This document shows, one piece after another, positions 20,032 through 63,872 of a DNA stretch of 64,000 nucleotides. Every line of letters begins with the position of its first letter. Within the stretch, counting starts at the first letter, position 1. Under the pieces are notes generated by a model. That model searched no databases, was not told where the DNA came from, and was given only the letters and a program-made list of their open reading frames with translations. The stretch lies in the NCBI GenBank assembly GCA_964399535.1, contig CAYNRE010000005.1, forward strand, positions 460,371 through 524,370. The letters are read 5' to 3'. Origin of the DNA: an uncultured Pirellulales bacterium. Its GTDB lineage: Bacteria; Planctomycetota; Planctomycetia; Pirellulales; CAYNRE01. Both the position numbers and the translations under genes were made by a program.

Positions 20032-20047
20032 CCGGCCTCGCCGGTTT
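20030..20047. terminator. Hairpin between convergent genes (possible bidirectional terminator)
   Basis: AACCGGC-CTC-GCCGGTT(T) is a 7-bp stem starting at the TAA of the DUF1570-like gene. It lies 6 nt before the stop of the convergent MBL gene. Confidence 0.4.
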
Positions 20048-20052
20048 GCCGA

Positions 20053-35112: not shown

Positions 35113-35115
35113 TTC

Positions 35116-39009: not shown

Positions 39010-39047
39010 CGGGGCGAAACGGAAAGCACGATTCATCGGGAGCCAAC

Positions 39048-46998: not shown

Positions 46999-47096
46999 AA
47001 TAAACAGAAAGCCGCGGCACGGCCCGCAACGCGGTGAGCGGCTCGCACAGGCGGAGCGCTGCCGCGGGGCCGATCGCGCGAGGCCTCGAATCTGTC

Positions 47097-48663: not shown

Positions 48664-49434
48664 TTACGACGGGCTTTCCAAGCCACCGAGGCGGCGTCCG
48701 CGTGCCACCAGCGCCCGGCGCACTCCTTCCCAGCCTGGCATCGCGGGCGGGTAGGAAACAATGTTTAATTCGTCGAACCAGGGCACGAATTGCTCCTCGA
48801 TCCATTCAATCTGCGGGCAAAGCATGTGGCGATGCACCTTTCGCCCCTCGTCTTCCTCGTAGGTCCAGGTGATGCCGGTGATGTAGACCCGGCCCGACCA
48901 GGGAGACGCCGCGTCGTGGTAAGGCAGAGGGCAGCCCGAGATCAACCGCGGGTCGGCCAGCGGTAAGAAACAGGTTCCTCCGGGACGGGTCCAACGGGCC
49001 AGATTCGCCAGCACGGTCCGCACGTCGGTCATCGACTCGACCAGGCCGTAGGCATACCACATGCAGGAAACCAGGTCCCAGCACCCATCCCAGTCGGGCT
49101 GGGGATCTCGAAAGTCGGCTTGGCGAAGTTCAATTTCCGGGTTGGCTGCCCGGGCTCGTTCGAGCATGGCGGGCGAAAGGTCGAGCCCGGCTCGCAGCGT
49201 GCCGGGGAACTGGGCCAGGAAGTAGCCGGTGCCGCAGGCTACATCGAGCCAACGGTGGCCATCGCTTAGGAGCTGGCCGAGCAGTTCGACTTCGAACTGG
49301 GCGTCGCTACGTCCCAATTCGGAGTGCACGAACCGGCGCTCGTAGTCGGCAGCGTATGTCGCGTCGTACAACCGCAGAATCTGCTGGCGGTCCAACGAGC
49401 CTCTCCTTATTGATTTCCGCGCCTCGGCCAGCAA
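48664..49434 (-). CDS. Class I SAM-dependent methyltransferase (TylM1/DesVI-like layout)
   Basis: The layout is YDATYAADYERRF..., motif I WLDVACGTGYF, GLDLSPAML, ADFRD and DLVSCMW, then a C-terminal lid. This is reminiscent of sugar N-methyltransferases. The subfamily is inferred. Confidence 0.85.
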   Translation of the reverse strand: MLAEARKSIRRGSLDRQQILRLYDATYAADYERRFVHSELGRSDAQFEVELLGQLLSDGHRWLDVACGTGYFLAQFPGTLRAGLDLSPAMLERARAANPEIELRQADFRDPQPDWDGCWDLVSCMWYAYGLVESMTDVRTVLANLARWTRPGGTCFLPLADPRLISGCPLPYHDAASPWSGRVYITGITWTYEEDEGRKVHRHMLCPQIEWIEEQFVPWFDELNIVSYPPAMPGWEGVRRALVARGRRLGGLESPS

Positions 49435-49498
49435 GACCGATCCCGCGGCGGGTGGCAGTCCTGCGAGCCAGGCCGCCGACCCGAGCGAATCTTGCCGG

Positions 49499-50338
49499 TC
49501 AACTCGCCGCGGGCAGCGCGGTCTCGCTGGGCGGGACCAGGCAGCCGGCGGCGATTACTTCTTCCCAGGTGCGCTGGCGAACCACGTACCCGCGCCTCCC
49601 CAGGCTGGGTACCTCGCGCGGCCGCTCGAAAAGCTGGTAATCGTGAAAGAACGCATCGCTCACGGCGAAGCCCTCGATCTCCTCGGGCGAAACGCGAATC
49701 CAGTGCTGCAAGGGTGCCTCGCACGGAACGCAAATACACGAGGCCGCCACCCGAACCCGGTCCGACTGATTCGGGGGCGAGCCATGCACCAGCCGGCCAT
49801 CGTAGAGAAGTGCCTCGCCGGCTCGCATCGGCAGCGCGACGCCGTAGGCGCTGGTCAGCCGTTCCAGCACCTCCTCGAGCGGGCAAGCATCGGCGTGGGG
49901 ACGAATCGGGTCTCCCAGGTGCTGGCTGCCCGGAATGACCACCATGGCACCGTTGACGGCATCGACGTCGACCAGCGGAATCCAAACGTGCACGGCCAGA
50001 AAGCGAGTTTCGTCGACGAACGACCAGTCTTGATGCATGCGCATCGCGCTGTCGGCCAGCCCGGGCTCTTTAACCATGAAGTTCGTCGTGCAGATTCGAT
50101 AGCCGGAAAGCAACGGCTCCAGGCGGGGCCCGAGCTGGGCGGTAAAACGCGCGTAAATCGCCTCGCGCAGTGGCCGGTTCGGGGCGTACATCGAGGCGTG
50201 GAACCCGCCCACCGGGGCTTGTCCCTGTCGGCAGTAGAAGCTCAGCAACTCGGCCGCTTCCTCGGCGCTCAGCAGCGGCACCACCGCGTAGCCGAGCCTT
50301 CGCCAGGATTCGGTGGCCAGGGGGCTCATCGTGATCAT
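49499..50338 (-). CDS. PhyH-family Fe(II)/2-oxoglutarate dioxygenase (paralog 1)
   Basis: Motifs: MRMHQDWSFVDE (HxD), WIPLVDVDAVNGAMVVIPGSQHL, LLYDGRLVHGSPPNQSDRVR (distal His, Arg). Confidence 0.85.
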   Translation of the reverse strand: MITMSPLATESWRRLGYAVVPLLSAEEAAELLSFYCRQGQAPVGGFHASMYAPNRPLREAIYARFTAQLGPRLEPLLSGYRICTTNFMVKEPGLADSAMRMHQDWSFVDETRFLAVHVWIPLVDVDAVNGAMVVIPGSQHLGDPIRPHADACPLEEVLERLTSAYGVALPMRAGEALLYDGRLVHGSPPNQSDRVRVAASCICVPCEAPLQHWIRVSPEEIEGFAVSDAFFHDYQLFERPREVPSLGRRGYVVRQRTWEEVIAAGCLVPPSETALPAAS

Positions 50339-50526
50339 GCGGGTAAAGTTCGCCGAGCCAAACCGTCGGAAAGGGATGGATGCAGCAAGCGATCGCGCCG
50401 GCGGTGCTGCCGCCGTCGAGGGGCGCCTTGGGGCGAGCCATCCTAACGAGCGCGAACGCTTCGATTATAATCGGCCAGGATGCACGTGGCGAATCCGCGG
50501 CGCGATCCAACGGACGGACCTTCGTT

Positions 50527-50564
50527 CTTCCCGAGGGGCGTGCCTGCTGGCCACCCTCGGGAAG
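50527..50564. promoter_or_regulatory. Perfect 11-bp inverted repeat in a divergent promoter region
   Basis: CTTCCCGAGGG-N16-CCCTCGGGAAG lies about 60 nt upstream of ATG 50626 and about 190 nt upstream of the divergent PhyH start at 50338. Its function is unknown. Confidence 0.4.
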
Positions 50565-50625
50565 CGACTACCTTTCGACTACGGCCAACCAACTCCACCG
50601 GATCGCTTCGCCAGGACGGGACGCA

Positions 50626-51396
50626 ATGAAACTCCGCAACTTCGGCGGGCGAGGCTATCCGCTGCTCGCGGCGGTCGCCGCAATGTTACTGGGCGGGATT
50701 CTCTGGATCGCACTGGGCCCGCGACGGACCCCGTCGCCGCCAGGGCCCCCCGCTTCGGCGCCGGGTTCGCAGCCGATCGCGGCCGGCGACGCTAGGAGCG
50801 GGCCCGAATCGCCGAATCCAGGCAGCGACGCGCCACCGCAACCGGCGGCCGCCCCGGGCCCTCTCGACCTGGAGTCGACGGGCGAAACTCTCGCGGCCCT
50901 CGACTCCCTGGTCGGCAGTCGCGTGGCGGTTGTCGTGTTCCTGGGAACCGACTGCCCGATTGCCCAGGCTTGCTTACCCAAGCTGCGCGAGGTGCAAACC
51001 CGGTTCGCCCCGCAAGGTGTCGTGTTTCTGGCGGTCTATCCGCACCATCACGAAACGCTGGCCGAGGCCCAGCAACATGCCGAGCAAGCCGGGCTCAAGT
51101 ATCGTGTGCTCCGCGATCGCCACCAACGGTTGGCCGATCGGTGGGGGGTTGCCCGGGTGCCCACGGTGTGCGTTCTCGACCGCTCAGGCCGCGTGGCCTA
51201 CCAGGGGAGCGTGGTCGAACGGATCGGGGCCCACCGTCCGGCGGGCGGCCGCGAGCACCTGGCCCTGGCCATTGAAGAGGTGCTGCGCGGAGAATCGCCC
51301 TCGCTGGCTCGGACACCGGTCGATGGCTGTCTGCTCGATCGCAGCCCCGCCGCAACCGAAGCTGTCGGCCAGGCCGAGCTGGCCCCCGCTGGGTAA
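50626..51396 (+). CDS. Membrane-anchored thioredoxin-fold (redoxin/AhpC-TSA-like) protein
   Basis: An N-terminal helix (YPLLAAVAAMLLGGILWIAL) and a Pro-rich linker are followed by VAVVVFLGTDCPIAQACLPKLREVQTRF...VVFLAVY...VPTVCVLD. It has C-x5-C rather than CxxC. Confidence 0.7.
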   Translation: MKLRNFGGRGYPLLAAVAAMLLGGILWIALGPRRTPSPPGPPASAPGSQPIAAGDARSGPESPNPGSDAPPQPAAAPGPLDLESTGETLAALDSLVGSRVAVVVFLGTDCPIAQACLPKLREVQTRFAPQGVVFLAVYPHHHETLAEAQQHAEQAGLKYRVLRDRHQRLADRWGVARVPTVCVLDRSGRVAYQGSVVERIGAHRPAGGREHLALAIEEVLRGESPSLARTPVDGCLLDRSPAATEAVGQAELAPAG

Positions 51397-51606
51397 ATTG
51401 CCATCGTGCGTCGCGCCGCGGGTCGGCTCTCCGCGTGGCGTCGACTTTTTCAGGCGACCCAAGGGCGTGCGTCGGCCTGGCGGCGGCGTTGGCTTGGACC
51501 TGCGCAGCGTGGCAACTAAACTAGCAGGATCGTTAAGCCCGCTCGTGGCCGGGGTGTGCGCCGGGGCCGCAGGGCAATGCAGCCGTTGAGGGAAGCACCT
51601 ACCACG

Positions 51607-52593
51607 ATGACCCCGCACCTGTCGGTCGTCATTCCGGTTTATCGAAGCCGGGCCACGCTGCCGAGCCTGCTTGCGCGGGTCGTGGACTGCCTCGAATCGA
51701 CGGCCGGCCGGCCCTGGGAAGTGATTCTGGTCGACGACGGAAGTCCCGACGACTCGTTCGTGGTGCTCGACGAACTGGCTCGGCGTTACGGCAGCCGGGT
51801 GCGAATCGGGCAATTGACCCGCAATTTCGGCCAGCACGCGGCCACGCTCTGCGGCATCAGCCATGCCCGGGGCCTCTGGGTGGGCACGCTCGACGACGAC
51901 CTGCAATACCAGCCCGAAGATTTGTTGCGCGCTTGGCAAGCGGCCGAAGCGGACAGTTACGACCTGGTTTACGGTCGGCCCCGTCGGGGGAATCATCCGC
52001 CGCTGCGGCGTTGGCTCTCGAGCGTGGGGCGGTGGCTCAGTTGCCGGGCCCTGGGTACCCAGGCCCACCCCAGTTCGCTCCGGGTGATGCGCGGTTCGCT
52101 GGCGCAGGCGCTGGCCGGCTCGGCGACCTCGAATCCGATTCTCGACGGCGTACTGTTGCAGTTGACCAGCCGAGTTGGCGCGGTCGATGTGGACCACTTG
52201 CCGCGGCAGCAAGGCCGTAGCGGTTACACCTACGCCAAACTGCTCAGCTTCTTTTTCACGCTTCTAACCACCTATTCGCTGTTGCCCCTGCGCCTGTTGG
52301 GGGTCTTGGGGCTGGCTTCCGTTGCGGGGGGCAGCGCTCTGGCCGCTTGGGCGCTCGTGGCCCGGCAAACCGGGCCCCTCTGGGCCGCCGCGGCGCTCAC
52401 ACTCTTGGGCGTACAGCTGCTGACCCTGGCGATCGGTGGAGAATACTTGGGGCGCATCCGGGCACTCGCCCATGGGCTGCCCCCCTACGTCGAGCGCAGC
52501 CCAGTGGCGGCTCGCTCACCGGGCGGCCATAGCCCGGCGGCCGCCGAGGAAGGCCGCTTTTGGCCGGCGGCGACGGAACCGATCGATGCCTAA
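51607..52593 (+). CDS. Polyprenyl-phosphate sugar synthase-type GT2 (ArnC/GtrB-like) with C-terminal TM helices
   Basis: Motifs: LSVVIPVYRSRATLPSLLARV, EVILVDDGSPDDS, TRNFGQHAATLCG, LDDDLQYQPEDL, and two C-terminal helices. The start could be 51556, 51577 or 51607. Confidence 0.85.
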   Translation: MTPHLSVVIPVYRSRATLPSLLARVVDCLESTAGRPWEVILVDDGSPDDSFVVLDELARRYGSRVRIGQLTRNFGQHAATLCGISHARGLWVGTLDDDLQYQPEDLLRAWQAAEADSYDLVYGRPRRGNHPPLRRWLSSVGRWLSCRALGTQAHPSSLRVMRGSLAQALAGSATSNPILDGVLLQLTSRVGAVDVDHLPRQQGRSGYTYAKLLSFFFTLLTTYSLLPLRLLGVLGLASVAGGSALAAWALVARQTGPLWAAAALTLLGVQLLTLAIGGEYLGRIRALAHGLPPYVERSPVAARSPGGHSPAAAEEGRFWPAATEPIDA

Positions 52594-52668: not shown

Positions 52669-52791
52669 TGCGAGCCACGACGAGCTTTGCTCGGCGCTTG
52701 GCGAGGTTGAGATTTGCCACGAGGGCATATTTCAACCGACTGCAAAGCTTGGCCAGCCATGCCCGCACTCCCCCGTAGCGGCGATCCCGGG

Positions 52792-53955
52792 ATGAACGAG
52801 CCGATTCCGTTCTCCCGGCCTTGCCTGGTCGGCCCGGAGCTTGACTATCTGGCCCAGGCCGCGCGGCAGGGGAAACTTTCGGCCGACGGGCCGTTCACCG
52901 CTCGCTGTGCCCAGTGGCTCGAGAACACGCTCGGACTCGAGCGGGTGCTGATGACCCATTCGGCCTCGGGGGCACTCGACCTGGCGCTGCGCACCTTGGG
53001 GCTGGCGGCTGGCGACGAGGTACTGCTCCCCTCGTTCACCTACGTGGCCACGGCCAACGCGGTGCTCGCCAACGGTGGCCGGCCGGTGTTTGTCGAGATC
53101 GAGCCCGAGACCCTGTGCCTCGATCTGGAAACCATCGAAGCGGCTCGCACCGCCCGCTGCCGGGTTGTGGTGCCGGTGCACTACGCGGGAGCAAGCTGCG
53201 ACCTACCGCGGCTGAGCCGCTGGGCAGCCGAGCGTCAAATCGACGTCGTGGAAGATGCTGCCCAGGCGGTCGGCTCGCGATTTGCCGACCGGGCCCTGGG
53301 TGGCTGGGGCGCCCTGGGCGTTTTCAGTTTCACCGATCAGAAGAATGTTACCGGGGGGCAGGCTGGCGCGCTGACGATCAATCGGGCCGATCTGTTCCAG
53401 CGAGCCCAGACGATCCGCGATCAGGGGACCGATCGGGCCCGCTACTTCCGCGGGGAAGTGCCCGAGTACACCTGGACGCTTGCTGGCGGGAGCTACGCGC
53501 CCAGCGAGTTGTGTTGCGCGTTTCTGCTCGCTCAGCTCGAGCAGTTCGAGGCGGTTACTAACCGCCGGCGCGAGCAGTGGCAATTTTATCGTGCCGCCCT
53601 GGGCCCGCTGGAAGCGCGAGGCGTGGTGCGGCTTCCCAAGACCCTGCCTGGGTGCGAACCCAACTTTCACCTGTTCTATTTGCTGGCGGCCGATCGCCTC
53701 GAGCGCGATCGACTCATCGCTCATCTAGCCCAGCAGGGAATTACGGCCCCGTTCCATTTCGTTCCGCTCCACTTGTCGGCCATGGGAATACGGCTGGGCT
53801 ACGGCCCGGGCGACCTTCCTCGCACCGAAGACCTGGCAGGGCGAATCGTGCGGTTGCCGCTGTTTCACGACCTGACGCGGCCCCAGCAGGAGCGCGTGGT
53901 GGGGGCCGTGAGGGAGTTCTATCGTGGGAATTTGCCGACGCGCCCCGCACCCTAA
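52792..53955 (+). CDS. DegT/DnrJ/EryC1-family sugar aminotransferase, WecE-like (NDP-4-keto-6-deoxyhexose 4-aminotransferase type)
   Basis: The N-terminus MNEPIPFSRPCLVGPELDYLAQAARQGKLSADGPFTARCAQWLE parallels E. coli WecE (IPFNAPPVVGTELDYMQSA...GKLCGDGGFTRRCQQWLE). SASGALDLAL, VPVHYAG and FSFTDQKN (PLP Lys region) are present. Confidence 0.9.
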   Translation: MNEPIPFSRPCLVGPELDYLAQAARQGKLSADGPFTARCAQWLENTLGLERVLMTHSASGALDLALRTLGLAAGDEVLLPSFTYVATANAVLANGGRPVFVEIEPETLCLDLETIEAARTARCRVVVPVHYAGASCDLPRLSRWAAERQIDVVEDAAQAVGSRFADRALGGWGALGVFSFTDQKNVTGGQAGALTINRADLFQRAQTIRDQGTDRARYFRGEVPEYTWTLAGGSYAPSELCCAFLLAQLEQFEAVTNRRREQWQFYRAALGPLEARGVVRLPKTLPGCEPNFHLFYLLAADRLERDRLIAHLAQQGITAPFHFVPLHLSAMGIRLGYGPGDLPRTEDLAGRIVRLPLFHDLTRPQQERVVGAVREFYRGNLPTRPAP

Positions 53956-53985: not shown

Positions 53986-54164
53986 GCCCAGCTCGGCCCG
54001 CGGCGCGGTACGCGATGGCGCCGCCGGTTGCTGGGCGGCGGCTGGGGTTCTCGATTCCCTTATTGCCGGAGTCAGCGTAGGCTAGAACCCTGGGCGCGAG
54101 GAACCACGCCGCCGTCGGATCTGAAAGATCTCTGCCCAATGCCAAGTCCTTGCGGATACCTGCA

Positions 54165-55049
54165 ATGAGCCAACCAAGCCTTTCCCAACCTTGCTCGCCC
54201 CCTGCAGGGGCTGCTACGAGCCGTTCGTTTCTCGACCCCGGATTGGCCGAGTGTATGGAGCGCGACGGCTACGTAGTGCTTCCGGTCCTCGATGCGGATT
54301 CGATCCGCGAGGTGATGGCAATTTACTGCGGGGCAGGCGTGACCTTTGAACAAGGGTGGCACACCGACATGTACAGTGCGAACCTCGATTATCGCCGGGC
54401 AACGCACGAACAGGTCGGTAAGATCTTCGCCGACAGAATCTTGCCGCTATTGAACGGGTTTCGCTTCTGCTGTGGTAATTTCGTAGTCAAAGAACCCCAT
54501 ATCGAAAACACCGTACCCCTGCATCAAGACTGGACGATTATTGAACATGACCAGTCGCGTTCACTGAACGTGATTTGCGCCATGATCGACGTTCCCCCAG
54601 ATCACGGTCAACTGCGGGTCTTGCCAGGAAGCCATCACGCTCCCAAACGCGTTAGTTTCGGTCCGGTCGATCATCTGCAGATCGCCCACCTCCTCCCGTT
54701 AATTGAGAAGCAATACGTCGTCCGGCTCCAGCAGCGAGCCGGTGAGGCGCTGATTTACGACGGACGGCTACTGCACGCCTCTGATCGAAACCGGTCGGAT
54801 CGCGTGCGCGTCTGCTACTCGGCCTCGTTCGTACCGCAGGAATCACCGCTGCGACATTATTACAAGGATCCGCAAGCGCCCGATGTTTTGGAAGAGTACG
54901 AAATCGACAGCGACTTTTTCTGGAAGCACAAGCTCGGCGAGCGCCCTCAAGAGGGAAAGCTTGTCCGCGCCATGCCTCACGTCGATTCCCCGATCACCGA
55001 ACAGCACCTCGTGCTGTGGAACCGTGCCCGACTTACAAGCCCAAGTTAA
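54165..55049 (+). CDS. PhyH-family Fe(II)/2-oxoglutarate dioxygenase (paralog 2)
   Basis: Motifs: VPLHQDWTIIEH (HxD), MIDVPPDHGQLRVLPGSHH, LIYDGRLLHASDRNRSDRVR. Confidence 0.85.
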   Translation: MSQPSLSQPCSPPAGAATSRSFLDPGLAECMERDGYVVLPVLDADSIREVMAIYCGAGVTFEQGWHTDMYSANLDYRRATHEQVGKIFADRILPLLNGFRFCCGNFVVKEPHIENTVPLHQDWTIIEHDQSRSLNVICAMIDVPPDHGQLRVLPGSHHAPKRVSFGPVDHLQIAHLLPLIEKQYVVRLQQRAGEALIYDGRLLHASDRNRSDRVRVCYSASFVPQESPLRHYYKDPQAPDVLEEYEIDSDFFWKHKLGERPQEGKLVRAMPHVDSPITEQHLVLWNRARLTSPS

Positions 55050-55247: not shown

Positions 55248-57335
55248 CTAGGCTTCTTTTGCCGACGGAGACCGATCGCGGCCGGCCAGGATCAGAATGG
55301 TTGCAACCAGTGCCAGCGCAAGCAGCGACACGATAAGCCCGAGCCAAAGCCCGCTCGGCCAGTGCGAGATTACAACGCGATGGCGACCCGCCGATATCGG
55401 CACGCCGAGAAACGCATGGTTCGTCCGGAGCACATCACAGCGCTGGCCGTCGACCCAGGCGCAAACATCGTCGCAGTAGGAATCGGCCACGACCAGTAAG
55501 GCCGCGGACGACGTTTCCACCTCGACCAAAAGGTTGCCCGCGTCGAGCTGGCGCAGCATGACCTGGCTGGGCCAGTCCGTGGCCGATAATGCCGTCGGCA
55601 GGGGGCGCTCGATCACTGCCTGTCGTTCGGGATCGAACTGGTCGGATCGGAGCAGGGCCAGTCGATCGTCCGAATCGGCCGCCAGCTTGGTTTCACCGAC
55701 CAGCCAGGCCCGCGGATGCGTCGGCGATGCCCGCAACAGTCGCACGGGCCGCTGGGCCAGGGGGCGCCAGCGCGGATCGAGCAGGTCGTGCCCGGGTCCG
55801 GGGGCGATGGCCTGATGGGTAACCGCGGCCAGCCGCGCCGAGCGTTGCCAGGCCCCACCCGGCAGGGCGCGGTACAACTCGACCAGCCAGCGAGGGCTGA
55901 CCGTGGAATCCTGGCTGTAGAGCTGCGCCGAGGGCAGCTCGAACAGCAGGTTGTAATCGGCCGGGGCGCTTTGCAGCGCGCGTTTGGCCAGCGATTCCGA
56001 GAGCCGGAGTTGTCTGCTCTCGTTTGCTTCGAGGGGGCTCATCGACCAAAGCCGCGTGTGCTCACCCGCGGTGGCGAGCCGCGCCAGCCTGGACCCGACC
56101 TGATCGTAGAGATTCTCGTGAGAAAGGTACAAGTCCAGGCGCTGAGACGTTGCCAGCAAGAGCAGTCCCAGCGGCAGTAATGCGCGACACGGCGCGCGAA
56201 GTGGTGCGTCGGCCGCGCTCGCCGAGGCAGCGAGTGCGTCGGCCCCAAAGGCCGACACGACCGCTACGGCCAGCACCCACCAGGAGAGGTACATTGAGGC
56301 CCAGCGAAACCAGCTATAGACCGGCAAATGATCGAGCAGGTCCGACAATGGCGTGTGCGCCGCCAGAAGCAGCCCGGCCAGCCCCAGGGCCATCCACATC
56401 CGCAGCCAACGATTCCGCAGAGCCAGCACCAGGCTGATCGCCAGGCATCCGACGAGAAACCCGTTCGCGGCGGCGCCAGCGAGCGCGCGCGGCAACGAAG
56501 CGTCGGCGACGTCGTAAACCTGTTGCCCCGGCTGCCAGAATTGGTCCCATCGCAGCCGAATCATCGCGGCGGGCTGCTGGGCTCGATTCGACTGCTCGAA
56601 GTATTGGTACAGCGGCACCAGTTGCACCGCGGTCAGGCACGCTGCTGCCACGAACACGGCCGCGGGCATGAGCCATCGTAGCGGCCAAAAAACCCTGTGC
56701 AGCACCAGGCAGGCGTACGCGCCCTGGAGCGTGAACAGAACCAGGGCGGTGTCGTACGAACCGGCCAGAATCATGAGCGCATTGACCAGCGCCAGGGTGC
56801 TCAGTGAGCGCCGTCGGCCCTCGGCGACGCGGTCCCAAAGCCAGAGCGCCGTGGGAATCCAGGCCAAGACCACCAGGCGAGCCACGGCGGCGTGGACCCA
56901 CTGCAGGGCGGGCGCCGTCATGAACACGCTGGCACCCCAGACACTAGCCAGCTGCCCCAGGCCGCGCCCGCGGAGGTAGCTGGCCATGCCCAGCCCGGCG
57001 ATCAGATAGTGCAACGCCACGAACACGTCGTGAGCCTTGGGAGTAGGCCAACCTACATAGAGCAAGAACCCTGGGTAGAAGATGCCGGTCTGCCCCTCGG
57101 CGGTAAGCGGAAAACCACAGGCCAACAGCGGGGTCCACCAGGGAAACGTGGCGCCGCGGATTTGCTCGGCGGCGTAAATTCGCCGCGGCACGTCGATGGG
57201 CGCCGTATCGGCTAGGTAAAGGTTGCCCTCCGACCAAACCAGCGGCCCGGCGTAGACGAGCCAGATCACGAATACCCCGAGCCAGCTCGGCGCCAGGCGA
57301 GCGGGGTCGGGCAAGGAATGGGGCGCGGCGGTCAT
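55248..57335 (-). CDS. Large polytopic GT-C-like membrane protein (YfhO-like)
   Basis: The 695-aa protein has about 14 helices. The N-terminal region FPWWTPLLACGFPLTAEGQTGIFYPGFLL resembles YfhO-type proteins. The C-terminal ~230 aa are extracytoplasmic with a final TM helix. The family is assigned from memory of the motif only. Confidence 0.6.
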   Translation of the reverse strand: MTAAPHSLPDPARLAPSWLGVFVIWLVYAGPLVWSEGNLYLADTAPIDVPRRIYAAEQIRGATFPWWTPLLACGFPLTAEGQTGIFYPGFLLYVGWPTPKAHDVFVALHYLIAGLGMASYLRGRGLGQLASVWGASVFMTAPALQWVHAAVARLVVLAWIPTALWLWDRVAEGRRRSLSTLALVNALMILAGSYDTALVLFTLQGAYACLVLHRVFWPLRWLMPAAVFVAAACLTAVQLVPLYQYFEQSNRAQQPAAMIRLRWDQFWQPGQQVYDVADASLPRALAGAAANGFLVGCLAISLVLALRNRWLRMWMALGLAGLLLAAHTPLSDLLDHLPVYSWFRWASMYLSWWVLAVAVVSAFGADALAASASAADAPLRAPCRALLPLGLLLLATSQRLDLYLSHENLYDQVGSRLARLATAGEHTRLWSMSPLEANESRQLRLSESLAKRALQSAPADYNLLFELPSAQLYSQDSTVSPRWLVELYRALPGGAWQRSARLAAVTHQAIAPGPGHDLLDPRWRPLAQRPVRLLRASPTHPRAWLVGETKLAADSDDRLALLRSDQFDPERQAVIERPLPTALSATDWPSQVMLRQLDAGNLLVEVETSSAALLVVADSYCDDVCAWVDGQRCDVLRTNHAFLGVPISAGRHRVVISHWPSGLWLGLIVSLLALALVATILILAGRDRSPSAKEA

Positions 57336-57561
57336 CGCGACGGATCCGGGGCGGCCGGAAACCCCTCGAGCGGCCGCGCGGGATGAGCCGCCGGTTTCCA
57401 AGCGTGCGCAGGCGCCGGGCGCCGCATCAGCCGTTTGCAGGCCACGGCCAACCTCACGCGACCGCCGGCGGGAGCCAAGCGGGCTCGGCCAAGCGTCCTT
57501 GCCACGAGCCTGACAGGCGGAAAAGCGATCGGCAAAGATTTCTGCCCTAGGAAGCGGGCGA

Positions 57562-58377
57562 TCAGTTCTGCTCTTCGGGCAGCGGTGCGGCGAACACGCC
57601 CCGCGCCGACCGCCCCCGCGGGCGCTCGCCGGGGATGTAGTCCCAGTAGAAGGTGGGGTCGACCGCGAAGACCTCGACCGCCGTGGGATCGACGCGGTGG
57701 TAGTACAACAGCGACGATTGCGGCCGGGCCAGCACGCAGCCCACCGCCAACCGCTCTCGGCCCGAGCGATTGATACCCGAGCCGTGCAACAACCGCCCGT
57801 CGTACACCACGGCCTGGCCCGGTACCAGGGGCACGCTCCGCAGCCGCTCGGGACAGTGGCGCGCGACCCAACCGCGCCGCGGGCAAGGGTCTCCGTGCGA
57901 GCGGGGAAACGGGCACTCGCGGTGCGAACCCACCACCACTTCCAGGCAGCCGTTCTGCTCGTCGACCGGCATCAGCGGCGTCCACACATTAAGCGTGAGA
58001 TCGGTTGTTTCGTCGACGAAGGCCCAGTCGAAGTGCAGGGCCACTTCCGTGCCGTCGGGCTGCGGCGACTTGGCCAGGTAGTTGGCCACCACGATGCGCC
58101 AGCCGGGCAGCACGGTATCGATGGACGGTTGCAGGTGCCCGGAAATCTCCTGGAAGATCCGGCGGCGCTCCTCGGCGCTGGCCAGATACATCGAGGCTTG
58201 AAACCCCGTCACCTCCGTGGCCGCGCGCTGGTACGAACTGCGCAGCGCGCCGAGAACGCTCGGCAAGGCCAGCTCGACGACCGCGTAACCGTCGCGCTCC
58301 AAGGCCGACCAGAGCGCGCTGGAATCTCCTGGGCTAATCGAGGGGGCCGGCGGCCCTGGCTGAGGCGAACCGCTCAT
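57562..58377 (-). CDS. PhyH-family Fe(II)/2-oxoglutarate dioxygenase (paralog 3)
   Basis: ATG 58377 overlaps the wzt-like stop (ATGA). Motifs: VALHFDWAFVDE (HxD), WTPLMPVDEQNGCLEVVVGSHRE, VVYDGRLLHGSGINRSGRER. Confidence 0.8.
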   Translation of the reverse strand: MSGSPQPGPPAPSISPGDSSALWSALERDGYAVVELALPSVLGALRSSYQRAATEVTGFQASMYLASAEERRRIFQEISGHLQPSIDTVLPGWRIVVANYLAKSPQPDGTEVALHFDWAFVDETTDLTLNVWTPLMPVDEQNGCLEVVVGSHRECPFPRSHGDPCPRRGWVARHCPERLRSVPLVPGQAVVYDGRLLHGSGINRSGRERLAVGCVLARPQSSLLYYHRVDPTAVEVFAVDPTFYWDYIPGERPRGRSARGVFAAPLPEEQN

Positions 58378-59924
58378 GACATTTCCCACTCGCAGTCCAT
58401 GCCGACCAGGTCGCGGATCCAGGTGCGAATATTGCCCGACTGCGAGGGGGGTTCGGTAACCTGGAAGAAATGGGGCCGGCTTTCCCAGCCCACGTCGGCC
58501 AGGGCCGCGCCGGTGGCCGCCTCGCCCAGACCAACCTTCATGGCGTAACGGCCGGCCCGCAGCGACAACCGGTCGATGGTTCCCCGCCAGACATGGCGGC
58601 CAGGACCAACCGAGAGCGTTCGGTCGTCGATACCCGTCAGCACCGTCGCAATATGGGTCGACAGGTCGGCTGTGCACAGCGTGAACCCGCAGACGATGGC
58701 CTCGAGCGGTTCGAACACCTCAAACACCACGAAGACCCGGGCCGGCTCGCCATAACGCAGCTCGCCGCCGCTGGCCGCTTCAATTCCCACTGAGCGAATC
58801 GCCACCGCGGCCGTGGCCAGCGCCGTTTTCACCTCGGCCCGCTCCAGGGGTTCGGCGTCGGGCACGCCCTCTGGGTCCGCGGCGGCGCACCGGGCGACCG
58901 CGCCGACCAGGTCCGCGGCCGGCTCTGAATCGGGTTGTGGGTTGGGTCGCGTGGCGGGGTCGTTTTCCAGATCGCCAAAGTAAATCGCCTCCCCCCCCCG
59001 AGTGATTGGCTCGTCGGCGGTTTCCGGCTGCGGCACGGGTTCGTCGCCGGGCACTTCGGCCGCAGATTCCCACTGGGTGCTGTCCAGGGGCGCCGGCGCC
59101 GTCTGGCGGGCGTCTGCGGAGGTCGAGGGCACCTCGGGCGCGGCGGCACCGGTCAGTTCCGCATGGTCGAGCTCGGCCGAGAGCTCGACGTAAAAGTGAA
59201 TCGCGTCGGTCGCCGGGCCATCGAACACCAGGCGACCGTGATGGATCACGATTGCTCGCTCGCACAGCGTTTGAATGGCCTGCATGTCGTGAGCCACGAG
59301 AATCAGCGTACCCCGCTGTTCGTGAAAGGTTTTCAGGTGCTGGCGGCAGCGGCGGCGGAAGGACAAATCGCCGACCGCGAATACTTCGTCGATCAGGAGA
59401 ATGTCGGGTTGCAAGTGGGCAGCCACCGCGTAGCCCAGCCGTGCCCGCATGCCGGTGCTGTAGGATTGGACGGGCGAGTCGATGAACTCGGCCAGATCGG
59501 CGAAAGCCACGATGCTGTCGAACAATTCGGCCGTGCGGCTCCGCGGCAGGCCCAGCAGGGCCGAGTTGAAGTAGACGTTTTCGCGCCCCGAAAGCAGCGG
59601 GTTGAAACCCAACCCCAGCTCGGTAATGGCGGCGATCTTGCCCTCGGTGGTGACCCGCCCCCGGGTAGGCGTCAGGCGGCGCATCATCAGCTTGAGCAAG
59701 GTGCTTTTGCCCGCCCCGTTGTTGCCGATGATGCCGACGCTTTCGCCGCGCTCGATGGTGAAGTTGGCGTTCTGAACTGCCCAAAAATCGCCCGGCAACA
59801 GCTCGGTGCTTTGGGCCGGCCGGGCAAGCATCCGCCGCGCCAAGTCTTCCAGCGCGTACCAGGCCGACCCGGTAAACCGCCGGTTGTATTTTTTCCAGAC
59901 GTCGTCGACGTGGATAGCCGGCAT
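58374..59924 (-). CDS. wzt: Polysaccharide ABC exporter ATP-binding protein (Wzt/TagH-like) with long linker and C-terminal beta-rich domain
   Basis: Walker A is GIIGNNGAGKSTLLK, the signature is YSTGMRARLG and Walker B is ILLIDEVFAVGD. It has the N-terminus typical of Wzt/TagH (VWKKY...ALEDL...FWAV). About 110 aa of acidic/Pro-rich linker and about 150 aa of C-terminal domain follow. Confidence 0.9.
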   Translation of the reverse strand: MPAIHVDDVWKKYNRRFTGSAWYALEDLARRMLARPAQSTELLPGDFWAVQNANFTIERGESVGIIGNNGAGKSTLLKLMMRRLTPTRGRVTTEGKIAAITELGLGFNPLLSGRENVYFNSALLGLPRSRTAELFDSIVAFADLAEFIDSPVQSYSTGMRARLGYAVAAHLQPDILLIDEVFAVGDLSFRRRCRQHLKTFHEQRGTLILVAHDMQAIQTLCERAIVIHHGRLVFDGPATDAIHFYVELSAELDHAELTGAAAPEVPSTSADARQTAPAPLDSTQWESAAEVPGDEPVPQPETADEPITRGGEAIYFGDLENDPATRPNPQPDSEPAADLVGAVARCAAADPEGVPDAEPLERAEVKTALATAAVAIRSVGIEAASGGELRYGEPARVFVVFEVFEPLEAIVCGFTLCTADLSTHIATVLTGIDDRTLSVGPGRHVWRGTIDRLSLRAGRYAMKVGLGEAATGAALADVGWESRPHFFQVTEPPSQSGNIRTWIRDLVGMDCEWEMS

Positions 59925-59928
59925 GCCG

Positions 59929-60855
59929 TTACGGGGCCTGCTGCGAAGTGCCCGGCCGGGCGCCGGTGGCCGAGCGCTCGCGCTGGTACTGGGCCAGGCG
60001 CTGGGCGAGTTGCTCGCTGGTAAAGGGGGACTGGGGCGTGCACGCAAGTTCAAGACAAGGGCACGCCCTGGGCCGCTCGCCGAGTTGGGCTTCGCGCCAG
60101 TAGAAATCTTCCGCCACGGCATAGGTTTCCACTTCCCGCGGCGAAACGCGGTAGTAGTGCCGCAGTTGGGCCTCTTGGGGAATGCCGACCCCCACCACCG
60201 CCACGCGGGGCACCGCACCCCGGTTAGGTCCCGAGTAATGTAGCAGTCGCGAGTGGTAGATCACCCCCTCGCCCGCCCGCAGGGGCAGTTCCAACAGGTG
60301 GTGCTCGACAATTTCCTGAGCCAGCGGCGCGTACGGCGAGCAAGCGGCATCTCCCTGGCCGTTCGGGCGCAGGTTGTCGCAGAACCGGTGGCTGCCCGGC
60401 ACTACCGCCAGGCAACCCACCTGATGATTGGTGTCGATCAGCGGCGACCAGATCGTCACGCTGGCAAACCGCGTTTCGTCGACAAACGACCAGTCCTGGT
60501 GCAGCGGCACCACGCTGGCGGGTACCGCCTGCTTCACCGCAAAGTTGCCCAGCACCAGGCGGTAGTTGGCCAGGTACCGTGCCGCCGAATCGGCCAGCGC
60601 GGCGGCAATCAAGGCGTTGACGCCCGCGCGGTAGCCGGCGTCCTGGCTCCACAGGCTCGAGTAAAACCCGTCGGCCAGGCGGCTTTCGAGGCGCTCGTAG
60701 CCCGACTGCAATAGGGCCACCTGCTCGGCATCGAGCAGCGGCACCACCACGTAACCGCGCTGGTCGAACTGGGCTTGATGCTGCGGGTCGCGCAGGGTCG
60801 GCCGGTCCACGGGCGGGCAAAACAGGTTCTGAGGTAGCGTCGGGCTAGTGGTCAT
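59929..60855 (-). CDS. PhyH-family Fe(II)/2-oxoglutarate dioxygenase (paralog 4)
   Basis: Motifs: VPLHQDWSFVDE (HxD), WSPLIDTNHQVGCLAVVPGSHRF, VIYHSRLLHYSGPNRGAVPR. Its stop lies 4 nt before the wzt-like ATG. Confidence 0.85.
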   Translation of the reverse strand: MTTSPTLPQNLFCPPVDRPTLRDPQHQAQFDQRGYVVVPLLDAEQVALLQSGYERLESRLADGFYSSLWSQDAGYRAGVNALIAAALADSAARYLANYRLVLGNFAVKQAVPASVVPLHQDWSFVDETRFASVTIWSPLIDTNHQVGCLAVVPGSHRFCDNLRPNGQGDAACSPYAPLAQEIVEHHLLELPLRAGEGVIYHSRLLHYSGPNRGAVPRVAVVGVGIPQEAQLRHYYRVSPREVETYAVAEDFYWREAQLGERPRACPCLELACTPQSPFTSEQLAQRLAQYQRERSATGARPGTSQQAP

Positions 60856-60980
60856 CGCTTGGGTTCACTGGGCGTTGCTTGTCGCTCCGGGCGGGCCCAA
60901 GGCCAGCCTGGCCCCCCGTGCCGCGTCGGAACCACACCCGACAGCAGTTCGTAAGCATCTTGCCTCAGCACCTTCACGTC

Positions 60981-61044
60981 TCGTCAGTTTCATTGCCTAG
61001 CGATCAGTTTCACTGCCTAGCAATCAGTTTCACTGCCTAGCAAT
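60981..61044 (-). repeat. Three tandem 20-bp direct repeats (plus the first 4 nt of a fourth) at the wzm stop
   Basis: The plus strand reads tcgtcagtttcattgcctag / cgatcagtttcactgcctag / caatcagtttcactgcctag / caat. On the minus (coding) strand each unit reads CTAGGCAGTGAAACTGAT(T/C)G. The wzm TAG stop is the CTAG of the first unit. Confidence 0.9.
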
Positions 61045-61852
61045 TGGAGTGGTCGACGACGATCGGAATCGCCCGGCGAAACCACAAGAGGGCCAGCACC
61101 AGGAGGACCCAGGCCCCCAGGGCGACGCCGACGAACCCCCAGGGGTTCTGAGCCTGGCCCGCAACCACCCAATCGCGGGTAGCCGACAAGAGGGGCGTCA
61201 CGGGGTTCAAGGCCACGATCTTGGCGGCCAAGCCCTCGGTGGGAGGCGGGAACAGCACCGGCGTGAGAAAAAGCCAGAAGGTAGTTACCGCGGTGAGCGT
61301 TTTCGAGACGTCGCGCACCAAGGCGTTCAGCGGCGCAAGGAACACCCCCAGCGCCGTTCCCAGCACAATCAGGCTCAGCACTCCCAGGGGCGCCAGCACG
61401 ACCGTGCCGGTTACCGGCAACTGATACCACCAGATTGCCAGCACGATCAGAATCATCTTGAACCCGAAGTGGTAGATCACCTCGCCCATGCCGGCCAGCA
61501 CGAGCGCCTCGGCAGGAAAGGCGGCCCGAGCCAACATCGGCAGTTCGTCGATCAGCCGATTGATCGGCATATTGAGCGATTCGATAAAGGTGGTCCAAAG
61601 CATCATGCTGAGCAGCACAAAGGCGGGATAGGGCAGGTCCAGCTTCGGGTCTTGAATGATCCGGGCATGTTGAATCAGCGTGCACCAGGCGGCCGTTACC
61701 AGCGGAGGAATGAACGCCAGCAGCGCGCCGAGGAACGAACTGCGGTACTCCGTGAGCAACGTACGGCGGAGCATTTCCACCGCCAGATGGCGCGAGGCAA
61801 CCAGGTCGCGGCCCAACTCGCGCAGGGCGACTTGAATTCCGGCGGTGTTCAT
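61037..61852 (-). CDS. wzm: ABC-2 type polysaccharide exporter permease (Wzm-like)
   Basis: ATG 61852 gives a 271-aa protein. The N-terminal LRELGRDLVASRHLAVEMLRRTLLTEYRSSFLGALLAFIPPL is the ABC-2 permease entry motif. Six helices are present. Confidence 0.85.
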   Translation of the reverse strand: MNTAGIQVALRELGRDLVASRHLAVEMLRRTLLTEYRSSFLGALLAFIPPLVTAAWCTLIQHARIIQDPKLDLPYPAFVLLSMMLWTTFIESLNMPINRLIDELPMLARAAFPAEALVLAGMGEVIYHFGFKMILIVLAIWWYQLPVTGTVVLAPLGVLSLIVLGTALGVFLAPLNALVRDVSKTLTAVTTFWLFLTPVLFPPPTEGLAAKIVALNPVTPLLSATRDWVVAGQAQNPWGFVGVALGAWVLLVLALLWFRRAIPIVVDHSNC

Positions 61853-62336
61853 CGCCGGCGCGCGCAGGCCGCGCCCCCCGGCTGGCTCGCACCCGCCGCC
61901 GGCCACACCTTCGCCAGGCACACCTTCGCCGTGCGCAAACTCCGTCCCCCTGGGTTCGCAACCCAGCTCACGGGCACCGAGCGCCAAGGCCCCCGGCGCG
62001 GAACCAAACCACGCCCTTTCCCGACCCCGCGGACTACCCCGCTCGCCGCGAGAAACCCAGAACCGGACAAATCGCCTAACTCAACGCTGGCAATCGACTT
62101 TCGTCTCCGAGTATACTTGCCTCCAGGGTCTGAATCAAACCACGCGACTCAGGCGCCATGACCGGCGCGGGGGGCACCGCGAGACGAAAGTTCGCGGAGA
62201 GGCCAGCTACCCAAGAACCGCCCGGCGACCAAGGCCTCCGCCACGGCACCGATTGCCTCCGTAGGTGAAAACCGCAGTTCGGGCCAGGGCGCGCCGACCC
62301 CGCCTTGCCGATCGCACTTCGGAAACCGGACTGCCC

Positions 62337-63872
62337 ATGGCCGACCCCGCCGTCAGCCGCGAAGCCGCGACCGCGCCGGCCGAGGCGATCCAGCCACGCC
62401 CGGCCCATCAACCCTTTGCGTCGGCCTGCTACGCGCCGTTTGTGTCGATGTATTTTGACACGCTTGGCTTCGTCCGCGCCTGCTGCCAAAACTGGACCCA
62501 AACCCTGGGCAATATCGCACACCAGCGGCTGCCCGATATCTGGCGCGGGCCACGGGCCGAGGCGCTGCGCGAGGCGCTACGAAACGGCGACTATGGGCTG
62601 GGTTGCCAGTATTGCGGCTGGCAAGTGGCCGAGGGCCCCCCGAGCGCCGTGTTCGCAAGGAATTTCGATCACCTTCCGGCCGGCGCCGAACCCGCCGATC
62701 TCTGGCCCGCCCAAATCGAATTCTCGCTGACCAACCTGTGCAATTTGGAATGCGTGATGTGCAACGGCGAATGGTCGTCGCGCATCCGCGCCGGCCGCGA
62801 ACGACTTCCCCCGCTGCCCGAGATGTACGGAGACCAATTCTTCAGCGACCTGGCGCCGTTTCTGCGTCGGGTGCGGTATCTGAAGTTCCTGGGGGGCGAA
62901 CCGCTGCTGGCCCCGCACACGTATCGCATTTGGGACCAGCTCGCCGCCGAAGGGCTATCGGTCGCCTGCCATGTAACGACCAACGGCACCCAGTACAATC
63001 GCCGCATCGAGGCGGCGATGGAAAGCCATCCGATTTCCTTCGCGGTCTCGGTCGATGGCGTCACCGCGGAAACCGTGGAGAGCATTCGCCGCGGCGCTCG
63101 CTGGTCCACCATTCTTGAGAACCTGGCCCGCTTTCGCGCCTATGCGGCCGAGCGGGGCACGACGGTCACGCTGACCTATTGCCTGATGCCGCAAAACTGG
63201 CACGAGCTGGGGTCGCTCATGCTCCAGGCCGACGACTGGGGCTGCGACGTGGTGGTAAACACGGTGCTGTTTCCGCCGGCCCACAGCCTGTATCACCTGC
63301 CGACCGCGCAATTGCGCGAGATCGTGGCGGCGCTTGCAACCGAGTCGGCCAGCATCGAGTCGCGGCTGACCAAGAACCGCCCGCGATGGCTGGATCAGCT
63401 CCAGCGGCTGCGGCAGCGTGCCGAGCACGGCGACCAGGCCTGGCTAGCGCAAATACCCCGGCGAACCACGGAGTTTTTTGCGGATTTGGCGGAGCCTGGG
63501 GTACCCGATGCGGCCCGACCGCCCGCGCCTTCGCTGCCCGTTGAAAACGAGATCTGGCTCGACGCCGACGACCGAGTCGTGGCCGCGCCCCCCGGAGCCA
63601 CCCTGGCCGATCTGCCGCCGGGCGAGCTGCTGGGCCGCCCGCTGGACCAGGTCTACGCGCTGATGCGAAACCGCTGGGGCGGGGTCATGCAGATCGATCC
63701 TCTCCGGGCCGATGGCGACTCGGTTTGGCAGCGGTGGTCGTTTCAAAATGCCCGGCTGCAGACCGTTCAGTTCCTGGCTCAAATCGCGCCCCGGCGGGGG
63801 GCCCAGGGGGAATTGCTGGGCACCCGGCTGTTGTTGATGCCCGCGCCAAGCGAAAGCGAACTCACCTCGTAA
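62337..63872 (+). CDS. Radical SAM protein with N-terminal SPASM/twitch-like Cys motif and unassigned C-terminal domain (paralog B)
   Basis: The order matches paralog A: YFDTLGFVRACCQNW...LGNIAHQRLPDIWRGPRAEALREAL...GCQYCGW, then SLTNLCNLECVMCNG (CX3CX2C), LGGEPL, TTNGTQY, SVDG. The ~170-aa C-terminal region is divergent. Confidence 0.8.
   Translation: MADPAVSREAATAPAEAIQPRPAHQPFASACYAPFVSMYFDTLGFVRACCQNWTQTLGNIAHQRLPDIWRGPRAEALREALRNGDYGLGCQYCGWQVAEGPPSAVFARNFDHLPAGAEPADLWPAQIEFSLTNLCNLECVMCNGEWSSRIRAGRERLPPLPEMYGDQFFSDLAPFLRRVRYLKFLGGEPLLAPHTYRIWDQLAAEGLSVACHVTTNGTQYNRRIEAAMESHPISFAVSVDGVTAETVESIRRGARWSTILENLARFRAYAAERGTTVTLTYCLMPQNWHELGSLMLQADDWGCDVVVNTVLFPPAHSLYHLPTAQLREIVAALATESASIESRLTKNRPRWLDQLQRLRQRAEHGDQAWLAQIPRRTTEFFADLAEPGVPDAARPPAPSLPVENEIWLDADDRVVAAPPGATLADLPPGELLGRPLDQVYALMRNRWGGVMQIDPLRADGDSVWQRWSFQNARLQTVQFLAQIAPRRGAQGELLGTRLLLMPAPSESELTS

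Follow-up and report, generated by a model that had tools for sequence, protein, structure and literature searches.

The wzm-wzt locus and its oxygenase genes

The window described here is a 64,000-nucleotide stretch of DNA from an uncultured Pirellulales bacterium (GenBank assembly GCA_964399535.1, contig CAYNRE010000005.1, positions 460,371 to 524,370), and the subject of this report is a four-gene cluster within it, in which the genes of a predicted O-antigen-type ATP-binding cassette (ABC) exporter, wzm and wzt, alternate with genes for two PhyH-type Fe(II)/2-oxoglutarate oxygenases, PhyH-4 and PhyH-3. Among the open reading frames (ORFs) of the minus strand, wzm comes first, followed by a 181-nucleotide spacer, PhyH-4, a 4-nucleotide gap, wzt, an ATGA overlap and PhyH-3. 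An earlier sequence-only reading had proposed this order, and all of its coordinates were borne out. Gene calling done independently on a second assembly of this organism (L002; related loci carry such numbers throughout) agrees, with identical lengths for the four genes and identical spacers, including the 226-nucleotide one after PhyH-3.

62110 to 62138, minus strand: sigma-70-like promoter match, TTGATT-17-TATACT, in the divergent region between wzm and a radical S-adenosylmethionine (SAM) gene
61852 (ATG) to 61037 (TAG), minus strand: wzm, ABC-2 permease of 271 amino acids (Pfam ABC2_membrane, 2.9e-10, above cut-off)
60983 to 61041, no strand assigned: tandem repeats, three 20-nucleotide direct copies resembling GCTAGGCAGTGAAACTGAT, in the wzm/PhyH-4 spacer
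61036 to 60856: wzm/PhyH-4 spacer, 181 nucleotides
60855 (ATG) to 59929 (TAA), minus strand: PhyH-4, Fe(II)/2-oxoglutarate oxygenase of 308 amino acids (Pfam PhyH, 4.3e-20)
between PhyH-4 and wzt: gap of 4 nucleotides, CGGC
59924 (ATG) to 58374 (TGA), minus strand: wzt, ATPase of 516 amino acids (Pfam ABC_tran, 1.8e-20)
58377 to 58374: wzt/PhyH-3 overlap, ATGA, the PhyH-3 start being shared with the wzt stop
58377 to 57562, minus strand: PhyH-3, Fe(II)/2-oxoglutarate oxygenase of 271 amino acids (Pfam PhyH, 5.9e-20)
57531 to 57546, minus strand: weak candidate terminator, a hairpin with a T-run 16 nucleotides past the PhyH-3 stop
55248 to 57401, minus strand: YfhO-like GT-C membrane glycosyltransferase, start at 57335 or 57401 (Pfam YfhO, 3.8e-10)

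The distance from PhyH-3 to the YfhO-like gene is 226 nucleotides if the latter starts at the ATG at 57335 and 160 nucleotides if it starts at the TTG at 57401. A promoter-like site (62138-62110) and a terminator-like site (57546-57531) flank the four genes. The former is the sole minus-strand promoter match, one having been found where 0.7 were expected, and is weak evidence; the hairpin could possibly be the end of a four-gene unit, and the bracketing of the four genes by the two sites is only suggestive.

The spacer repeats that the sequence-only reading had reported are real. They occur at this single site, with no further copy in the window (0 expected by chance), the first copy contains the last wzm codon and the stop codon, and the copy number is the same in the L002 assembly. 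They are possibly a protein-binding site or a slippage-prone tract. Folding of the 181-nucleotide spacer as RNA was no better than that of shuffled sequence (z = -0.72).

Identity of the exporter

The wzm product has several hydrophobic segments and is 59% identical to Wzm of the closest related locus (L001), in a 270-amino-acid alignment that supports the ATG at 61852 as the wzm start. In alignments of Wzt, the Walker A motif (GxNGAGKST), the signature motif (YS(S/T)GM) and the Walker B residues DE are invariant, and the best NCBIfam matches are TagH and galactan Wzt. An AlphaFold2 (AF2) model divides the protein into a nucleotide-binding domain (NBD; amino acids 1-258, 59924-59151), a disordered, acidic and proline-rich linker of about 100 residues (amino acids 267-367, 59124-58824) and a C-terminal beta-sandwich (amino acids 370-516, 58817-58377), the last with block-mean predicted local distance difference test (pLDDT) values of about 84-97. 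The top Foldseek match in the PDB is to the full-length A. aeolicus WzmWzt chains 7k2t/8dku (E 3e-33, about 519 columns) and spans both domains; its NBD and A. aeolicus Wzt (6m96/6amx) share 39% identity. At the C-terminus, the Pfam Wzt_C model scored 22.5 bits, below the family cut-off of 30.4, and a profile search of the PDB with the carbohydrate-binding domain (CBD) placed three Wzt CBDs at the top (5hno, 8dky and 6o14; E 0.003-0.08). Judged from sequence and model, Wzm and Wzt are predicted to be a genuine O-antigen-type exporter whose Wzt carries a C-terminal carbohydrate-binding-type domain, with glycan export as the predicted function.

The linker between NBD and CBD differs widely in length among Wzt relatives of the clade, and the solved A. 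aeolicus Wzt chains are about 120-140 residues shorter than the window protein.

The PhyH enzymes

Four PhyH paralogs, PhyH-1 to PhyH-4, are encoded in the window, and all four keep the HxD...H...R site for iron and 2-oxoglutarate. They matched only PhyH-type models in Pfam, and there is no NCBIfam model specific to them. In PhyH-4 numbering, H119, D121, H206 and R217 are invariant across 35 aligned sequences including the four window paralogs, and the full HxD..H..R set is present in 229 of the 263 PhyH ORFs of related loci. PhyH-3 and PhyH-4 have no hydrophobic segment and are probably soluble, cytoplasmic proteins.

The AF2 model of PhyH-4 (pLDDT 90.4) gave 397 Foldseek matches in the PDB at E<=0.001, with PhyH-fold enzymes at the top, and has the double-stranded beta-helix fold. 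SnoN, MysH, SnoK, AviO1 and EvdO2 are the top matches; by sequence and structure together, the nearest solved relatives are SnoN/SnoK, AviO1/EvdO2/HygX/EvdMO1 and KanJ, with MysH and EctD also among them. For PhyH-3, few close relatives were found. The oxygenases of glycoside antibiotics, SnoN/SnoK (nogalamycin), EvdO1/EvdO2/EvdMO1, AviO1 and HygX (orthosomycins, hygromycin B) and KanJ (kanamycin), share the HxD..H..R site with PhyH-4 at about 20-23% identity and TM-scores near 0.5. SnoN/K, EvdO, HygX and KanJ act on sugars in assembled glycosides, not on nucleoside diphosphate (NDP)-sugars. These enzymes belong to secondary-metabolite clusters, whereas the window genes lie in an exporter operon for a cell-surface glycan. 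Likeness to the orthosomycin-type oxidative cyclases (EvdO/AviO/HygX) appears to be a resemblance of fold and sequence only, at 20-23% identity, and membership of that group is not claimed.

One position-specific paralog of the Bacteroidota cassettes described below has HxN instead of HxD (27 cases; the second-position gene, L027 11069-11995), and this paralog may have altered chemistry or serve as a non-catalytic partner. A halogenase reading, with HxA/G in place of HxD, was rejected, the paralogs all having aspartate, or asparagine at that one position. Also rejected was a one-to-one pairing of the four window paralogs with the seven positions of the L027 cassette: all pairs are 20-38% identical, with no positional orthology across phyla.

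Gene order among planctomycete relatives

One 17-kb contig of a Pirellulales metagenome-assembled genome (MAG; L001/L003) carries both the closest relative of Wzt (P0002) and that of PhyH-4 (P0122), and its order is a divergent radical SAM gene, wzm, PhyH, wzt, PhyH and a methyltransferase-GT2 fusion. Identity of the L001 proteins to those of the window is 59% for Wzm, 54% for the radical SAM protein, 45% for PhyH-4 and 42% for Wzt. The PhyH gene between wzm and wzt on this contig is the ortholog of PhyH-4, and the one after wzt is the ortholog of PhyH-1 (54%), not of PhyH-3. A second planctomycete MAG (L005) has the order wzm, DegT, a PhyH-4-type gene, wzt and a PhyH-1-type gene. Planctomycete relatives keep the order at about 41-59% protein identity, a divergence at which synonymous sites should be saturated. 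Because the order persists in L001/L003 and L005 at such divergence, and because 29 loci carry an expanded form of it, the arrangement is more than chance. This is the outcome of the synteny comparison that the sequence-only reading had proposed as a check.

A wider view of the Wzt clade comes from ten loci, namely the window, L001/L003, L005 and the loci of seven among the nearest full-length Wzt homologs (38-41% identity). PhyH is an immediate neighbour in six of the ten (window, L001/L003, L005, L064, L067 and L070). L067 and L070 have an adjacent wzm-wzt pair bordered by PhyH, and GT4/GT2 polymerase-type genes lie beside the wzm-wzt-PhyH group; the two exporter genes are on opposite strands, separated by several genes or not together in L064, L065, L066, L068 and L069. 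Genes for double-PhyH fusions directly adjoin wzt in L070 (16-nucleotide overlap) and wzm in L064.

The sequence-only reading had taken wzm and wzt to be normally adjacent, and had held that relatives with an adjacent pair and PhyH elsewhere would speak against a link. The first premise is weak for this clade: it stands for L067 and L070 and fails for L064, L065, L066, L068 and L069, where the two are non-adjacent or wzm is missing nearby. As to the second, where the pair is adjacent PhyH still flanks it, while four clade loci are without a nearby PhyH gene. A split between wzm and wzt is not unusual in the clade; what is distinctive is that PhyH is found repeatedly in or bordering the gap.

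A different kind of oxygenase occupies the same permease-ATPase gap in L072 (3470-8810), where an acyltransferase-cytochrome P450 fusion comes between an ABC-2 permease and a Wzt-like ATPase, with a PhyH-3-like gene after them.

Expanded cassettes in other phyla

A search of the PhyH clade with one genome per species recovered 61 loci, which were annotated by our own profile searches. In 31 of the 61 loci (30 of the 48 with a length of 12 kb or more), 1-6 PhyH domains are encoded between a wzm and a wzt of the same strand. All but two of these 31 have 4-6 PhyH domains and then a methyltransferase directly before wzt. The 29 come from Bacteroidota and Proteobacteria genomes, mostly from Bacteroidota (Crocinitomicaceae, Flavobacteriales, Saprospiraceae), with a few MAGs labelled Hydrocarboniphaga or Henriciella; relatives of Dokdonia, Fluviicola and Chryseobacterium are among the cassette carriers. 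A locus labelled Arenicella (L060) agrees with these in its upstream genes and has wzm with four PhyH genes, its contig ending before any wzt. In L027 (cassette at 9141-16856, GenBank JASJHD010000014.1), Pfam recognises ABC2_membrane, a methyltransferase, a Wzt with Wzt_C and seven PhyH genes that score above threshold.

Sugar O-methyltransferases (3bus; D-glucose O-methyltransferase 6uv6) are the nearest matches to the methyltransferase encoded between the PhyH array and wzt. L016, L047 and L058 each encode a protein of about 610 amino acids in which the final PhyH and a methyltransferase are fused, directly upstream of wzt or of a radical SAM gene and wzt, with both domains identified by Pfam; a fourth locus, L054, has an ORF with similar PhyH-methyltransferase homology, which runs off the contig end. 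A PhyH-like region in EvdMO1 (6ec3), an enzyme whose deposition names it a methyltransferase-domain protein, matches PhyH-4 and parallels these fusions, although the domain order here, PhyH then methyltransferase, is a difference from the antibiotic enzymes. Cassette loci often carry one to three extra PhyH genes on the other strand and an N-terminal-SPASM radical SAM homolog. In Bacteroidota cassettes such homologs lie between the methyltransferase and wzt or divergently upstream (L016, L033, L036, L054 and L058).

Intergenic gaps in L027 are 41, 6, -1, 1, -4, 5 and 6 nucleotides, and those in L001 are 66, 25 and 20 nucleotides, so that the window spacing is not conserved there. The sequence-only reading had seen in the 4-nucleotide gap and the ATGA overlap a sign of stoichiometric or physical association of two oxygenases with the ATPase. 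Such an association does not follow from the spacing, because the packing is ordinary, as the L027 gaps illustrate, and the distances are not kept in L001. Close spacing of this kind is ordinary operon packing, which gives co-expression and is not itself a sign of a complex.

Two further features of the cassettes were noted. In type-1 cassettes, the gene for a conserved 297-amino-acid protein with no Pfam match (L027 8162-9055, minus strand; about 25 loci have an equivalent) invariably points away from wzm and follows genes for ketoacyl-acyl carrier protein synthase III (KAS III), an ArnC-like GT2 and a GNAT protein. The type-2 cassette of L036 adjoins a phage-type integrase and holds a Cu type II monooxygenase-like protein, a multihaem cytochrome c and a B12-binding radical SAM protein (3197-4405, 13716-15164 and 17904-20491), as well as a redoxin and a SPASM radical SAM protein, with no glycosyltransferase; it may be mobile and have broader redox chemistry.

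The surrounding glycan region

From about 38.9 kb to its right end, the window is a sugar-pathway region, while all scanned genes at 14-32 kb are housekeeping genes or have no family match.

62265 to 63872, plus strand: radical SAM protein with N-terminal twitch/SPASM domain, divergent from wzm (Pfam)
54150 to 55049, plus strand: PhyH-2, PhyH paralog
52714 to 53955, plus strand: DegT-family sugar aminotransferase (Pfam, 1.3e-80)
51556 to 52593, plus strand: ArnC/GtrB-like GT2 with C-terminal hydrophobic (predicted transmembrane) stretches
50380 to 51396, plus strand: redoxin/AhpC-TSA-like protein
49499 to 50338, minus strand: PhyH-1, ortholog (54%) of the PhyH after wzt in L001/L003
48664 to 49554, minus strand: SAM methyltransferase just downstream of PhyH-1, the ORFs overlapping
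47004 to 48632, plus strand: radical SAM paralog with N-terminal SPASM domain
44662 to 46998, plus strand: PMT_2 (ArnT-like) GT-C glycosyltransferase
43086 to 44282, minus strand: GFO/IDH/MocA sugar oxidoreductase
41464 to 43368, minus strand: carbamoyltransferase (NodU/CmcH type)
38967 to 39812, plus strand: soluble GT2 glycosyltransferase, at the left edge of the glycan region

The radical SAM protein divergent from wzm is 54% identical to the gene at the same position in L001 (6176-7759), which makes it better conserved with that locus than Wzt or PhyH-4. Against NCBIfam N_Twi_rSAM (NF033640) it scored 154.7 bits, short of the cut-off of 170, and is called a relative rather than a member; both N-terminal-SPASM/twitch paralogs of the window score just under that cut-off. 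Radical SAM proteins may be an oxygen-independent partner of the PhyH enzymes. Redoxin/AhpC-TSA-type proteins recur in L036 (15161-15730) and L065 (14501-16870), and may contribute to the redox upkeep of iron or iron-sulfur enzymes.

The PhyH-2 region (54001-55049) has a guanine-cytosine (GC) content of 0.584 against about 0.67 in its neighbours, and a third-position GC of 0.65 against about 0.78-0.80, composition that suggests a recent acquisition. A PhyH-2-type gene, a close relative (367 bits), adjoins YfhO in L010 too, and this placement in both loci suggests oxidised donor sugars. The GT2 at 51556-52593 is probably a polyprenyl-phosphate sugar synthase. The nearest solved relatives of the methyltransferase at 48664-49554 are amino-sugar N-methyltransferases (CalS10, TylM1-type), and the pair of a PhyH-1-type gene and a methyltransferase is also present in Kuenenia and Chthoniobacterales MAGs (L006 9785-11621; L007 8048-9671).

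A 1298-amino-acid protein with three CBM_4_9 domains (35113-39009, plus strand) lies at the left edge of the glycan region, and related CBM-type proteins occur beside wzt in L064 and L066. A polytopic membrane protein of about 670-700 amino acids with no Pfam family recurs in planctomycete wzt loci at 27-50% identity (L002 1954-3993, just past the right window end; L065 3912-5966 and 12378-14477; L066 3816-5933; L068 4102-6108), and may be a GT-C-like glycosyltransferase or polymerase. No GtrA/Wzx-type flippase turned up among the genes scanned, and no kinase or WbdD-like coiled-coil ruler protein was identified.

Proposed oxidative tailoring before export and its alternatives

A functional link between the oxygenases and the exporter, as the sequence-only reading had argued, is supported by an order conserved across phyla, by PhyH flanking the exporter genes in six of ten Wzt-clade loci and by PhyH-methyltransferase fusions upstream of wzt. 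PhyH genes and wzm/wzt are co-inherited across phyla. We give an about even chance to a reading in which wzm, PhyH-4, wzt and PhyH-3 are one transcription unit and PhyH tailors a lipid-linked glycan before export, possibly together with a methyltransferase that builds a cap. The four genes would form a single transcription unit of an ABC-transporter-dependent, O-antigen-type glycan pathway. Cytoplasmic PhyH enzymes would oxidise sugars of the undecaprenyl-linked glycan at the cytoplasmic face, after its assembly and before its export, by hydroxylation, radical epimerisation or oxidative cyclisation. Action on the assembled, lipid-linked glycan is proposed because the nearest solved relatives act on assembled glycosides and because the enzymes would share a compartment with the NBD and CBD of Wzt.

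More speculatively, PhyH and the SAM methyltransferase might build or finish a non-reducing-end cap recognised by the C-terminal domain of Wzt, and oxidation might act as a licence for export. In E. coli O8/O9a, the terminator gene wbdD adjoins wzt, and CBD-bearing Wzt proteins read a terminal cap; the cap idea rests on these two precedents. As candidate chemistry, hydroxylation could precede O-methylation, or O-methylation could come first and an oxidative bridge be formed afterwards, as in EvdMO1. A link to chain termination or export recognition, which the sequence-only reading had also raised, is plausible because Wzt has a CBD-type domain and a sugar-O-methyltransferase-like gene is always present between the PhyH array and wzt in the large cassettes.

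Several observations weigh against this proposal. The promoter and terminator matches around the four genes are not above chance frequency. Four of the ten Wzt-clade loci (L065, L066, L068 and L069) have no PhyH within 8 kb; these PhyH-free loci keep the CBD, some of them with a methyltransferase as well, so PhyH is not required for this CBD type. Five to ten PhyH domains per locus are far above the need of one cap, a number that favours tailoring of repeat units or substituents. The conserved Bacteroidota cassette holds only an ArnC-like GT2, with no obvious polymerising glycosyltransferase. Finally, the window methyltransferase beside PhyH-1 resembles NDP-amino-sugar N-methyltransferases, which hints at precursor-level chemistry.

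Much of this would fit an account in which PhyH tailors repeat units, N-acyl substituents or nucleotide-sugar precursors, and its place in the operon reflects co-expression only, with no role in termination or export. The many paralogs, with up to 10 PhyH domains per locus, speak for it, as do the precursor genes nearby (DegT, GFO/IDH/MocA, carbamoyltransferase, GNAT and KAS III), the TylM1/CalS10-type methyltransferase of the window and the Wzt relatives that have the same CBD type and no PhyH. However, the nearest solved PhyH relatives work on assembled glycosides rather than NDP-sugars, the PhyH array and methyltransferase are fixed between wzm and wzt, and PhyH-methyltransferase fusions abut wzt, in the position next to the exporter gene that the O8/O9a terminator gene also takes. 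We regard this account as unlikely, though it carries real weight. A second possibility is that Wzm/Wzt flips a polyprenyl-phosphate-linked, tailored amino-monosaccharide, made by DegT and the ArnC-like GT2 and oxidised and methylated by PhyH and methyltransferase, for transfer by periplasmic GT-C enzymes (YfhO, PMT_2) in an Arn/Gtr-like scheme. In its favour, the window and the Bacteroidota cassette each encode an ArnC/GtrB-like GT2 and DegT, two GT-C genes lie in the window, neither window nor cassette has GT4-type polymerising enzymes, and the genes scanned include no GtrA/Wzx-type flippase. Yet we know of no case in which Wzm/Wzt flips a monosaccharide carrier, a Wzt with a CBD is the hallmark of capped polymers, L067 and L070 carry polymerase-type GT4/GT2 genes beside wzm-wzt-PhyH, and an exporter and GtrB/GT-C decoration normally co-occur, as in streptococcal rhamnose polysaccharide clusters, all of which makes this scheme improbable.

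Export of something other than a glycan, such as a modified peptide or an isoprenoid lipid, with PhyH, radical SAM and methyltransferase as natural-product tailoring enzymes, would suit three loci: L036 with its Cu-monooxygenase-like protein, redoxin, SPASM and B12 radical SAM proteins and integrase and its lack of a glycosyltransferase, L067 with a polyprenyl synthase and UbiA beside PhyH-wzm-wzt, and L072 with the acyltransferase-P450 fusion between permease and ATPase. The window and type-1 cassettes, however, are rich in genes of sugar pathways, both domains of Wzt match O-antigen Wzt, and no precursor peptide gene was seen, although no systematic search for one was made; a non-glycan cargo is very doubtful. 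That the gene order is a functionally meaningless accident of genome shuffling is scarcely credible: planctomycete relatives do often have wzm and wzt scattered, but the order persists across phyla and down to 41-59% protein identity, gene fusions occur, and a PhyH neighbour in six of ten loci is far above any plausible background, by a rough estimate that assumes few PhyH genes per genome.

Tailoring of a lipid-linked glycan before export can also be extended to a bolder form, which we hold only tentatively and consider unlikely as a whole. The window would then be the minimal form of a cross-phylum cassette, wzm-PhyH (one to six)-methyltransferase-wzt, in which the oxidised glycan is the signal that the Wzt CBD needs, giving an oxygen-dependent export checkpoint, possibly with oxygenases docked on Wzt. 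Its products might be hydroxylated-then-methylated sugars, or orthoester/methylenedioxy-type bridges as in orthosomycins.

Relation to known systems and significance

ABC-transporter-dependent glycan export is well understood for a handful of model O-antigens, whose known end-caps are methyl, phosphomethyl or Kdo (3-deoxy-D-manno-oct-2-ulosonic acid) groups. The window exporter shares with the Wzm/Wzt systems of A. aeolicus, E. coli O8/O9a (WbdD) and Klebsiella O12/Raoultella terrigena (WbbB) an ABC-2 permease, an ATPase of NBD and C-terminal beta-sandwich, and an association of methyltransferase genes with the exporter. Unlike in those models, wzm and wzt are here split and flanked by Fe(II)/2-oxoglutarate oxygenase genes, and the NBD and CBD are joined by a disordered linker of about 100 amino acids. 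We know of no described system with an oxygenase in its termination/export module. The window also resembles GtrB/GT-C (YfhO, ArnT) decoration systems in its ArnC/GtrB-like GT2, DegT, YfhO and PMT_2 genes, without the GtrA/Wzx flippase, which was not found among the genes scanned.

As far as is known, the established 2-oxoglutarate oxygenases of lipopolysaccharide (LPS) biosynthesis are KdoO and LpxO, both Fe(II)-dependent: KdoO converts Kdo to Ko (D-glycero-D-talo-oct-2-ulosonic acid), and LpxO 2-hydroxylates lipid A acyl chains (PMC5462993, PMC5767591, PMC6434125). Both act on the core or lipid A and are encoded by single genes outside the exporter operon, whereas the PhyH genes form arrays of paralogs. 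KdoO and LpxO also belong to other families, the Kdo hydroxylases and the Asp/Asn beta-hydroxylase type, respectively. PhyH-superfamily genes such as XAC3597 lie inside Xanthomonas wzm/wzt LPS clusters, and a biofilm screen yielded a transposon mutant (PMC3130047; bioRxiv 10.1101/2022.03.02.482478). These genes likewise sit in an ABC-transporter-type O-antigen cluster, but are not reported as lying between wzm and wzt and have no assigned function. In full-text literature searches, no functional study of a PhyH gene between wzm and wzt was found, only the passing Xanthomonas LPS mentions together with KdoO and LpxO. The window has the minimal form of an exporter-plus-oxygenase cassette that is conserved and apparently unstudied.

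With oxygenases conserved inside an exporter module, surface-polysaccharide biosynthesis would gain oxidative C-H chemistry, and new sugar structures would be expected in planctomycetes and in marine and freshwater Bacteroidota. The cassette offers a testable case of tailoring linked to export, as well as targets for heterologous expression and enzyme discovery. Moreover, since PhyH enzymes need O2, the structure or export of the surface glycan could follow oxygen availability, a setting in which the radical SAM partners may matter.

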